Positions 41,760 to 43,278 of a stretch of DNA of 64,000 nucleotides are shown here, piece after piece. Position numbers and translations under genes: made by a program. The notes under the pieces were generated by a model, which did no database searches, was not told where the DNA came from, and was given only the letters and a program-made list of their open reading frames with translations. The stretch is taken from the sequence record PQ330092. One strand, 5' to 3'. Source of the stretch: Escherichia phage JP4. The number at the start of each line of letters is the position of its first letter. Positions within the stretch are counted from its first letter, which is position 1.

Positions 41760-42656
41760 TTACTTACCAGAGATGACAATCTTACCACTGAAAGAAATAT
41801 CAGAAGTGAAGATTACATCACCAGTACTACTAATTTGTGTATCAGTCACTACCAATTCAAATGGAGATGACGAAACACTCCCAGGTGTTTTATTTGCATA
41901 AATTGAAATATACAAATTATCTGGTGTTTGATTGTGTTCAGATGCAGGAATAGTGATTGTAAAATCACCATCACTAGAAACCCAATCTGCTTGGTTTACC
42001 AATTTACTATAAGGTACTGTCATTGTTGTTGCTCCTATAATGTTTACTTTAACACTTGCATAATCTGTGATTTGACCAATCACATCAATTGTTATATCCC
42101 CAATACCACTAACTGTTACTGTGGTTTGGAATACTGATTCCAATGCAACATTACCTGGGTCACCTTGTAGTTGGATCATAATATCAGAACCTCTACCATG
42201 AACTGATTCTGGTAGTGTGTAAGTATAATGATCAGTAGTATCTGGCACTAATGTAAATGCAGAAACAGGAACTATTTCAGTAGTTACATATGAGCTATCA
42301 GTCCCAGGTGAGCTACCTTTAAATGGTTTCCAAATACCAAGATCTTTAATATAAATTTGAAGAACATTAGTACTATCAACCAAAAAGTAAACGTCACCAT
42401 CTAGACCGATCGAATCGGATGGTGCTGTTGTTCCACGTAAGATACCAGAACTACCACCACCACTGTGTGCGTTTAAATATCCCAATGTAACCAAGTGTGT
42501 GTTTGCAGTTGGTTCACCTGCTGAAATTGGAAGAAGTTGTGTTCCTGAGTAGTTTTGAATTTGCACAACACTACCATTTGTGGTAATCTGTGCACCATTC
42601 TTCCCAAGAATGAAGGACTTCTTCATGGTTCCTTCTAAATTAGAAAAAACTGCCAT
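41760..42656 (-). CDS. Tail fibre-like protein (298 aa) with shared N-terminal module
   Basis: N-terminus MAVFSNLEGTMKKSFILGKNG nearly identical to that of 42673..43278. Confidence 0.6.
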   Translation of the reverse strand: MAVFSNLEGTMKKSFILGKNGAQITTNGSVVQIQNYSGTQLLPISAGEPTANTHLVTLGYLNAHSGGGSSGILRGTTAPSDSIGLDGDVYFLVDSTNVLQIYIKDLGIWKPFKGSSPGTDSSYVTTEIVPVSAFTLVPDTTDHYTYTLPESVHGRGSDIMIQLQGDPGNVALESVFQTTVTVSGIGDITIDVIGQITDYASVKVNIIGATTMTVPYSKLVNQADWVSSDGDFTITIPASEHNQTPDNLYISIYANKTPGSVSSSPFELVVTDTQISSTGDVIFTSDISFSGKIVISGK

Positions 42657-42672
42657 TTTAATATAATCTCCT

Positions 42673-43278
42673 TTATGGTAGGGTTATGTAAGTTACGGGT
42701 TGGGCAGCTTTTAATGCTGCACCAGCGGCAGTTGCTGTTATGATAGGATCTGCAATATCAATTCTATATACGTTGTTTACAACATACACTGCACGAGTTA
42801 TATACGTTCTCAAATCACCACCATTTTCGCCATCACCTTTAGCACCAAATTCTTCTGGTGTTATATAAAACTGGGCCTGTTGAACTGTACCTCCAGTAAT
42901 AAGTCCGATGAAATCGCCACCATTTTTACTGGATAGAACTTTTTTATTAATGTATAATGATTTTACCCATGTACCATTACTTTTTGCAAAAATATCAACA
43001 ATACCATCTTCATCAATTTGAAAATACGTATTATTGTTCTTTCCTACATCATCGGTAGGGGGTACAACACCAAATAATGCATTAGGGTTATCTTCAAGAT
43101 ATTTTACGTTAACTGCTGAATTAGGGTCAGATGAAGTTCCTACCTTCAGTGGTAGGAACTGTTCTCCTAGATAATCTTTTATAGAAACTGAATCATTGAT
43201 AAAATTTATTGAAGCACCTTTTTTCCCCAATATGAATTTGGGCTGCATAGTTCCTTCAAAATTAGAAAATACTGCCAT
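42673..43278 (-). CDS. Tail fibre-like protein (201 aa) with shared N-terminal module
   Basis: N-terminus MAVFSNFEGTMQPKFILGKKG; GGGAGG SD. Confidence 0.6.
   Translation of the reverse strand: MAVFSNFEGTMQPKFILGKKGASINFINDSVSIKDYLGEQFLPLKVGTSSDPNSAVNVKYLEDNPNALFGVVPPTDDVGKNNNTYFQIDEDGIVDIFAKSNGTWVKSLYINKKVLSSKNGGDFIGLITGGTVQQAQFYITPEEFGAKGDGENGGDLRTYITRAVYVVNNVYRIDIADPIITATAAGAALKAAQPVTYITLP

Follow-up and report, generated by a model that had tools for sequence, protein, structure and literature searches.

In the present study, we examined two adjacent open reading frames (ORFs) in a 64,000-nucleotide (nt) stretch of DNA from Escherichia phage JP4 (sequence record PQ330092); the whole stretch is referred to herein as the window. 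ORF A (42673..43278, 201 amino acids (aa), beginning MAVFSNFEGTMQPKFILGKKG) and ORF B (41760..42656, 298 aa, beginning MAVFSNLEGTMKKSFILGKNG) are both encoded on the minus strand, and the coordinates below are window positions on this strand unless another strand or record is named. We consider it likely that the two proteins share an N-terminal anchor module, that ORF B is a conserved protein, and that ORF A is the headless remnant of a tailspike that was truncated by a repeat-mediated deletion. An earlier note on this DNA described the pair as interchangeable receptor-binding proteins that dock onto the same virion site. The design principle it proposed was right, whereas its description of the present state of the genome was wrong: of the pair, ORF B is an intact, conserved virion protein, and only a headless tailspike remnant is left in ORF A.

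At the position of ORF A, relatives of this phage carry a gene of 2142 bp that encodes a 713-aa protein labelled 'colanic acid degradation'; 121Q gp573, PBECO4 ORF547, and SHEFM2K M2K_0543 (713 aa) are its full-length counterparts. ORF A consists of residues 1-151 and 664-713 of this colanidase tailspike and is 100% identical to it on both sides of a single 512-residue gap (residues 152-663). The DNA of the window aligned with that of SHEFM2K and 121Q in two perfect blocks, which overlapped by 19 nt and skipped 1536 bp. Since 1536 is a multiple of three, the reading frame was kept. The family phrog_6117 ('colanic acid degradation') matched ORF A in two pieces, corresponding to its ends only, while a Pfam search of ORF A and ORF B gave no match. 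The complete identity of both flanks and the location between the gp574 and gp572 orthologues mark the descent of ORF A from the colanidase gene. The junction (42819..42837) is a hybrid copy of a 19-nt imperfect direct repeat, and the window reads GGTGATGGCGAAAATGGTG at this site. In the intact genes, the 5' copy of the repeat, GGTGATGGCGAAACTGATG, encodes G-D-G-E-T-D at the start of the beta-helix, and the 3' copy, GGTGCTGGTGAAAATGGTG, located 1536 bp from the 5' copy, encodes G-A-G-E-N-G near the C-terminus. The sequence of the deletion junction is GGTGATGGCGAAAMTGGTG. Judging from the sequence, we concluded that ORF A is an in-frame deletion remnant and that the phage has no working second receptor-binding protein at this locus.

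The enzymatic part of the tailspike was removed by the deletion. Colanic-acid-degrading activity was reportedly measured for PBECO4 ORF547 by Kim et al. in 2015. The parent of ORF A is 99-100% identical to 121Q gp573 and PBECO4 ORF547. Its residues 96-712 aligned with Phi92 gp150 (PDB 6E0V/6E0W; E=1.8e-235, ~58% identity), with the alignment to 6E0V beginning at residue 96. 6E0V has been described as a colanidase tailspike (PMC11640937). According to a passage in a citing paper, PBECO4 gp547 likely degrades a polysaccharide component of the bacterial cell wall (PMC10059673). In phage J8-65, the protein of which is a homologue of the full-length colanidase, a colanidase tailspike was experimentally shown to open mucoid E. 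coli to infection (PMC4179555). The deletion strips the equivalent of 6E0V residues ~67-574 of 626. ORF A has no beta-helix catalytic body homologous to gp150 or WcaM (PF27800), which is present in the intact relatives. Its C-terminal immunoglobulin (Ig)-like domain of the PF20745 type, which spans residues 615-701 of the full-length protein, is incomplete, with only residues 664-701 left. ORF A also differs from gp150 at the other end: its first ~95 residues are unrelated to the N-terminus of gp150 and derive from the Rak2-like gp572 family. The N-terminus of gp150 comprises ~188 aa in the phi92-like homologue P0094 (PF26208 in precomputed tables).

Two segments of the colanidase were retained downstream of the N-terminal module. 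The neck shared with Phi92 gp150 (ORF A residues 109-151, 42826..42954, assigned by the 6E0V alignment) ends in GAKGDGE, the motif that normally opens the beta-helix in the intact protein. It is followed by the last 50 residues of the colanidase (ORF A residues 152-201, 42676..42825, mapped with PF20745 TSP_Ig-like), which correspond to the last ~38 residues of the ~87-residue Ig-like domain and a tail. In AlphaFold2 (AF2) models, the predicted local distance difference test (pLDDT) score of ORF A was 75-90 for the N-terminal module and <50 for residues 136-201; the neck was modelled as short helices with low confidence. The C-terminal remnant is not predicted to fold. The loss of colanic-acid degradation is predicted for a phage carrying the window allele.

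The N-terminal parts of ORF A and ORF B are homologous well beyond their opening residues. The near-identical N-terminus reported in the earlier note was confirmed for the first ~11-21 residues (16/21 identical in the opening peptides) only. The pairwise alignment (BLASTP, 41/109 identities, 38%, E=1e-21 in a single comparison) showed that homology spans ~105-109 residues, five times further than first noticed and far past the ~10 aa that a chance match might explain. The sequences downstream are unrelated past residue ~110, as the note had described. The downstream part of ORF A represents the fused remains of the 713-aa gene, which was invisible from the window alone. In the DNA, 30/33 nt are identical at the start, and the two genes diverge afterwards with no long identical tract. 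We attribute the similarity to preservation of the protein sequence and not to a recent DNA duplication. Exactly two copies of the N-terminal module are present in every Asteriusvirus-like genome among the matches listed, and one copy is present in other Rak2-like phages (GAP32, CBB, BF, fHe-Yen9, Munch, XaC1, RaK2, and K64-1). No third copy was detected within the window or in the neighbouring gene with the collagen motif. The sequences indicate that ORF A and ORF B are paralogous genes arranged in tandem within the tail-fibre cluster.

ORF B is a full-length member of the gp572 / GAP32_221 / CBB_227 family (phrog_10468, E=1.5e-100, residues 1-298) and lies at the conserved locus of this family, for which we know of no published function; ORF A shares its N-terminal module. 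Its members are resolved herein into an anchor and a repeat unit with 0-2 sandwich domains behind them. In ORF B, the N-terminal module (residues 1-112, 42321-42656) precedes two beta-sandwich domains (residues ~120-298, 41763-42299) that were modelled with pLDDT >90. The overall pLDDT was 82.6, with residues 1-10 disordered in the monomer. Homologues of ORF B formed 73 clusters at 100% query coverage, with identity down to 41%, and originated from phages of Escherichia, Cronobacter, Erwinia, Yersinia, and Salmonella; tblastn with the module added phages of Serratia, Pectobacterium, Klebsiella, and Xanthomonas. In 121Q, SHEFM2K, GAP32, CBB, K64-1, and RaK2, the locus follows the collagen-motif tail protein and precedes the next fibre or structural gene, which is the long fibre where present. 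We concluded from these comparisons that ORF B probably represents the conserved, ancestral form, which is single-copy in all Rak2-like phages. Its orthologue CBB_227 was detected in purified virions by electrospray ionisation tandem mass spectrometry (5 unique peptides, 32% coverage; PMC5259590 Table 4).

Identity within the ORF B family was 95% for residues 1-11, 66% for the anchor, 63% for the repeat unit, and 45-50% for the two distal domains. Such a gradient from proximal to distal is typical of fibres, but the tip is not hypervariable. A fold search with the distal part of ORF B revealed resemblance to generic Ig-like domains only, and PDB searches with ORF B, the ORF B family profile, and the N-terminal module profile returned nothing significant. 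A match to 'Dokki_15' that looked full-length (E=0.49) failed on alignment and was rejected.

A profile built from 27 N-terminal modules was searched against 1.84 billion representative proteins. It split into two parts: positions 1-~70, which we refer to as the anchor, and positions ~65-111, the repeat unit. The anchor (ORF A residues 1-66, 43081..43278, MAVFSN.EGT...) was matched at the extreme N-termini of diverse proteins resembling receptor-binding proteins. Its invariant residues are M1, F4, S5, N6, G9, T10, G18, K19, and G21, and the first 11 residues are nearly invariant. The anchor heads P0169, in which it is followed by a right-handed beta-helix; P0165 and P0183, with BNR/sialidase-like propellers; P0205, with CBM_5_12; and P0161, a fibre that ends in a Peptidase_S74 chaperone. 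No cultured relatives were found for these five proteins. Two matches did not start at residue 1, namely, P0258 (6-93) and P0252 (641-738, mostly the repeat unit). The arrangement in the window recurred on a 120-kb contig of an uncultivated phage (L012, Logan SRR18476386), in which two genes located three genes apart (1431-3773 and 10001-12118 of the contig) share the anchor, one having a Peptidase_S74 chaperone and the other a beta-helix. The N-terminal module profile did not match the known Pfam anchors (Head_binding PF09008, Phage_T7_tail PF03906, Tail_spike_N PF18668, and Phage_tail_fib PF12571), and neither half of the module was covered in the local copy of Pfam. PF27114 ('Phage_tail_beta') was considered as a name for the anchor and rejected; it is found on P0161 and P0169, but is absent from the anchor-bearing P0165 and from ORF A and ORF B. 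The region covered by PF27114 is more likely to be the domain downstream of the anchor. The 66-aa anchor itself was previously undescribed and unnamed.

The repeat unit is a single collagen-associated unit of ~45 aa in both proteins (ORF A residues 67-108, 42955..43080, LFGxxPPxxxxGxxNxxYFQxDxxGIVxIFxKxNGxW; ORF B, 42321-42458). At E<=0.001, 504 representative proteins were retrieved with the profile, the majority through this 'GDxY...W' unit. The unit is present in hundreds of proteins in 3-15 copies each (G..P....G..GD.Y.......I..IY.K..G.W), often alternating with collagen Gly-X-Y tracts, as is also the case in LPXTG surface proteins. Foldseek against BFVD retrieved collagen-like proteins of phages and giant viruses. 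Each of these lines (profile, inspection, and fold search) is weak; however, the three agree, and we therefore regard the unit as a putative trimerisation node. Residues ~67-110 of ORF A and ORF B form one unit of the GDxY...W repeat, which is also carried by collagen-like fibre proteins in phages and giant viruses and on Gram-positive surfaces. In contrast to these proteins, ORF A and ORF B have a single unit and no Gly-X-Y tract, and the collagen tract is encoded in the neighbouring gene.

The module occurs with different numbers and types of distal domains. It stands alone in RaK2 ORF061 and K64-1 gp067 (115 aa, at the same locus) and in P0139 (113 aa), precedes one sandwich in P0138, P0149, and P0151, precedes two sandwiches in proteins of the ORF B type, and precedes the colanidase in those of the ORF A type. 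P0096 (792 aa; 6320-8698 of contig L010, Logan SRR31729320), encoded beside thyA, combines the N-terminal module, the colanidase body, and the terminal sandwich of the ORF B type; in this divergent Rak2-like phage, it may represent either an intermediate or a different solution. The colanidase body was found in 255 phage records of very different types. Elsewhere, it follows P22 Head_binding, T7 fibre-N (Phage_T7_tail), tail-collar-fibre-N (Phage_tail_fib), or TSP1/gp66-N (Tail_spike_N) domains. Since the same body is found behind these particle-binding domains in other phage lineages, the Rak2-like module appears, by its position, to be their lineage-specific equivalent. For jumbo Klebsiella phages, an organisation has been described in which an exchangeable body is joined through a neck to an N-terminal structural part (PMC9700779). 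This organisation is also common to CBA120 TSP1-4, G7C gp63.1/gp66, the depolymerase sets of PhiKp24, RaK2, and K64-1, and the dual spikes of K1-5, in which a short, conserved N-terminal part and neck carry an exchangeable body that is enzymatic or serves in binding.

These observations point to a putative role of the anchor in docking on a fixed virion site, for which the products of gp574 and gp571 are the obvious candidate partners. We propose that the baseplate or fibre complex offers a fixed site into which the anchor fits, that the beta unit brings about trimerisation, and that the distal part is displayed on the virion. ORF B would display two Ig-like sandwiches, and the upstream gene of all sequenced relatives would display a Phi92-gp150-type colanidase, digesting the colanic-acid capsule of E. 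coli. In the window, recombination between the 19-bp imperfect direct repeats, 1536 bp apart, cut out codons 152-663 in frame. The product retains the anchor, the putative trimer unit, the neck, and a 50-residue fragment unable to form the native domain, and the enzyme is gone. The phage may make at most a headless stub, possibly still occupying the docking site, and the ability to strip colanic acid would be lost. Such a stub may still assemble, which is suggested by the existence of a natural 115-aa form consisting of the module alone.

The shared N-terminus may instead be a relic of tandem duplication or domain capture that was retained for folding or trimerisation and not for attachment to the virion. 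The repeat family that includes the second half of the module is characteristic of trimeric collagen-like fibres, and the modules of ORF A and ORF B are just 38% identical, both of which suit this explanation. However, the first 66 residues are found almost solely at extreme N-termini, ahead of unrelated distal domains; across genera, conservation reaches ~95% in residues 1-11, in contrast to the drifting distal parts; and the 115-aa protein comprising only the module is maintained at the same locus in RaK2 and K64-1. We consider the relic explanation to be rather unlikely.

The proposal in the earlier note that both genes encode functional alternative receptor-binding proteins, which dock on one site and determine a dual or alternative host range, has a sound basis in part. 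The homologous module is real and stands ahead of unrelated distal domains, not only in ORF A and ORF B but also on beta-helix, BNR, S74, and CBM proteins; the ancestral upstream gene encoded a bona fide tailspike; and receptor-binding proteins with a common anchor are an established design (PMC9700779). A common anchor ahead of exchangeable distal domains consequently fits the ancestral state. However, ORF A lacks residues 152-663, and no folded distal domain was apparent in its AF2 model. A receptor-binding role of ORF B is not supported: its distal part consists of generic Ig-like sandwiches, in which identity remains at 41-50% even among phages that infect different host genera, and this moderate conservation weighs against the proposal. 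The two partners do not both carry a functional receptor-binding or enzymatic distal domain, that of ORF A being deleted and those of ORF B being generic Ig-like folds. Since ORF A is a deletion remnant without the whole enzymatic beta-helix, the idea of dual host-range determinants is inapplicable to the present genome, and we regard two working receptor-binding proteins at this locus as very unlikely.

The deletion was found in a second genome. An NCBI third-party assembly labelled E. coli (L007, GCA_052240675.1, contig DBJWRT010000041.1) likewise encodes a 201-aa protein that resulted from this 1536-bp deletion. The contig is 98.8% identical to the window over 13 kb and carries a 121Q-type fibre of 1841 aa instead of the 2129-aa allele, which indicates a phage different from that of the window. 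Only one base, at window position 42824, is informative about the crossover, and the junction of the contig, GGTGATGGCGAAACTGGTG, places the crossover on the opposite side of this base; the contig reads GAAACTGG (…GDGE-T-GGD) versus GAAAATGG (…GDGE-N-GGD) in the window. In an exact look-up, the 201-aa product of the window was not on record; the near-identical P0074 differs by N152T. In searches of INPHARED phages, IMG/VR, RefSeq complete E. coli genomes, and JGI metagenomes, the junction was not recovered; it was absent from 21/21 Asteriusvirus isolate records matched by the stretch, all of which keep the full gene. The sole match in the junction search (L011) was a chance match in an unrelated low-complexity protein. 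An extra T shared at window position 41754 was rejected as a sign of the common descent of the deletion alleles; the length of this T-run is polymorphic among isolates, and the base is uninformative. The absence of the junction from the 21 isolate records, IMG/VR, JGI metagenomes, and RefSeq genomes is what would be expected if the 201-aa ORF had arisen as an artefact of assembly or sequencing, or represented a minority variant of a phage with an intact 713-aa gene, but this is most improbable, because the deletion allele is present in two distinct genomes, the independent NCBI assembly having it with a slightly different crossover, while the junction in the window is clean and in frame with perfect flanking matches, and the 19-nt repeat, being so short and containing mismatches, seems unlikely to be collapsed by a k-mer assembler.

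The two junction variants probably arose through independent deletions at a hot spot, which we favour over a single deletion that was later altered. In a further Asteriusvirus contig (L008 1269-3408, Logan SRR24140120), two 1-nt deletions, separated by 10 nt, interrupt the colanidase gene and leave ORFs of 254 and 452 aa, which may reflect either another inactivated allele or an error of sequencing. We tentatively speculate that the 19-bp repeats constitute a recurrent in-frame deletion hot spot, through which Asteriusvirus populations switch the enzyme off and keep an anchor-only stub. This stub would be equivalent to the 115-aa protein of RaK2 and K64-1 and would act as a plug by which the assembly of the baseplate is preserved; selection would favour spike-less variants, for example, where phage and E. 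coli persist in association, the setting from which such 'E. coli' assemblies come. The two junction variants in two genomic backgrounds and the third, frameshifted allele (SRR24140120) are in its favour; however, we consider this scenario in its full form to be doubtful.

Several points weigh against our interpretation of ORF A and ORF B. The deletion is known from assembled sequence alone. The two junction variants could represent one deletion that was later altered by a conversion patch or a point change. The modules of ORF A and ORF B may use different sites, being only 38% identical. The virion proteome of phAPEC6 lists the flanking gp253 and gp256 and neither of the genes between them (PMC7247149). 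The presence of the ORF A and ORF B types in Asteriusvirus particles would follow from annotation and from the CBB orthologue.

The kind of system described herein is well known, and the recurrent in-frame loss of the enzyme represents a small but testable novelty; the findings do not overturn current understanding. A compact putative attachment module, comprising a 66-aa anchor and a probable collagen-type trimer unit, mounts very different distal domains in Rak2-like and uncultivated phages. It may serve as a handle to engineer or predict the receptor-binding proteins of jumbo phages, the adsorption apparatus of which is poorly resolved. That the same deletion occurs in two genomes suggests a mutational hot spot; under some conditions, there may also be selection against the colanidase. 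Moreover, a short 'fibre-like' ORF beside a paralogue can be a collapsed depolymerase remnant, which is a trap for annotation. In a therapeutic Asteriusvirus, the length of the colanidase gene matters for claims on host range or anti-capsule activity.

Over bases 41500-44500, identity was 99.8% with Escherichia phages SHEFM2K, phAPEC6, and SP27 and 99.0-99.1% with 121Q and PBECO4. These five are E. coli jumbo myoviruses, and the group falls within the 'Rak2-like' phages. By this identity, we assigned the window to Asteriusvirus (121Q/PBECO4/phAPEC6-like E. coli jumbo phages), a genus name that stands in the sequence records of 121Q and phAPEC6. ORF A and ORF B are located in a tail-fibre cluster, and the order on the minus strand is the collagen-motif 'tail protein', ORF A, ORF B, a terminator-like hairpin, and the long fibre gene. 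Spacers of 14 and 16 nt with ribosome-binding sites (GGGAGG / AGGAG) join the gp574 orthologue, ORF A, and ORF B, which appear to form one transcription unit closed by the hairpin. This intrinsic-terminator-like hairpin (41723..41751) has a 13-bp stem followed by a T run, stands directly after ORF B, and carries a 'terminator' annotation in phage G17. The T-run at 41752-41759, between the ORF B stop codon and the hairpin, differs in length among isolates (160, 161, or 162 nt for a 161-nt query).

The collagen-motif 'tail protein' (43293..44456) is the orthologue of 121Q gp574 and phAPEC6 gp253 and matched phrog_13565 (E=4e-225), with a weak Collagen match; phAPEC6 gp253 was found in virions (PMC7247149 Table 1). 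Within it, the motif FHIDS.G..FP...Y.FYN..DGKLY occurs twice, and there is a short Gly-X-Y tract of the collagen-like kind. The start chosen by the ORF finder is a TTG; the start annotated for the SHEFM2K protein (375 aa) lies 12 codons further downstream. In the phAPEC6 record (L005, MK817115.1), the colanidase and gp572-like genes at 4001-7190 are unannotated and the numbering passes from gp253 to gp256, with the DNA intact.

The long tail-fibre gene (35232..41621), an orthologue of 121Q gp571, encodes 2129 aa in the window and 1841 aa in 121Q and SHEFM2K, to which it is only 93-97% identical, with indels of repeat blocks. This allele is 99.5% identical to that of phage vB_EcoM_CRJP21. Since the fibre is closest to CRJP21 and the neighbouring region is of the SHEFM2K type, the window appears to be a mosaic, with a CRJP21-type fibre beside a SHEFM2K-type gp572-574 region. 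Long antisense ORFs (207-348 aa) within the fibre gene (35659-41691, plus strand) reflect a repetitive, stop-poor composition and are not genes. A 3333-aa ORF (52538-62539), located downstream of a ClpA-like gene, is orthologous to 121Q gp582, a giant 'virion structural protein'.

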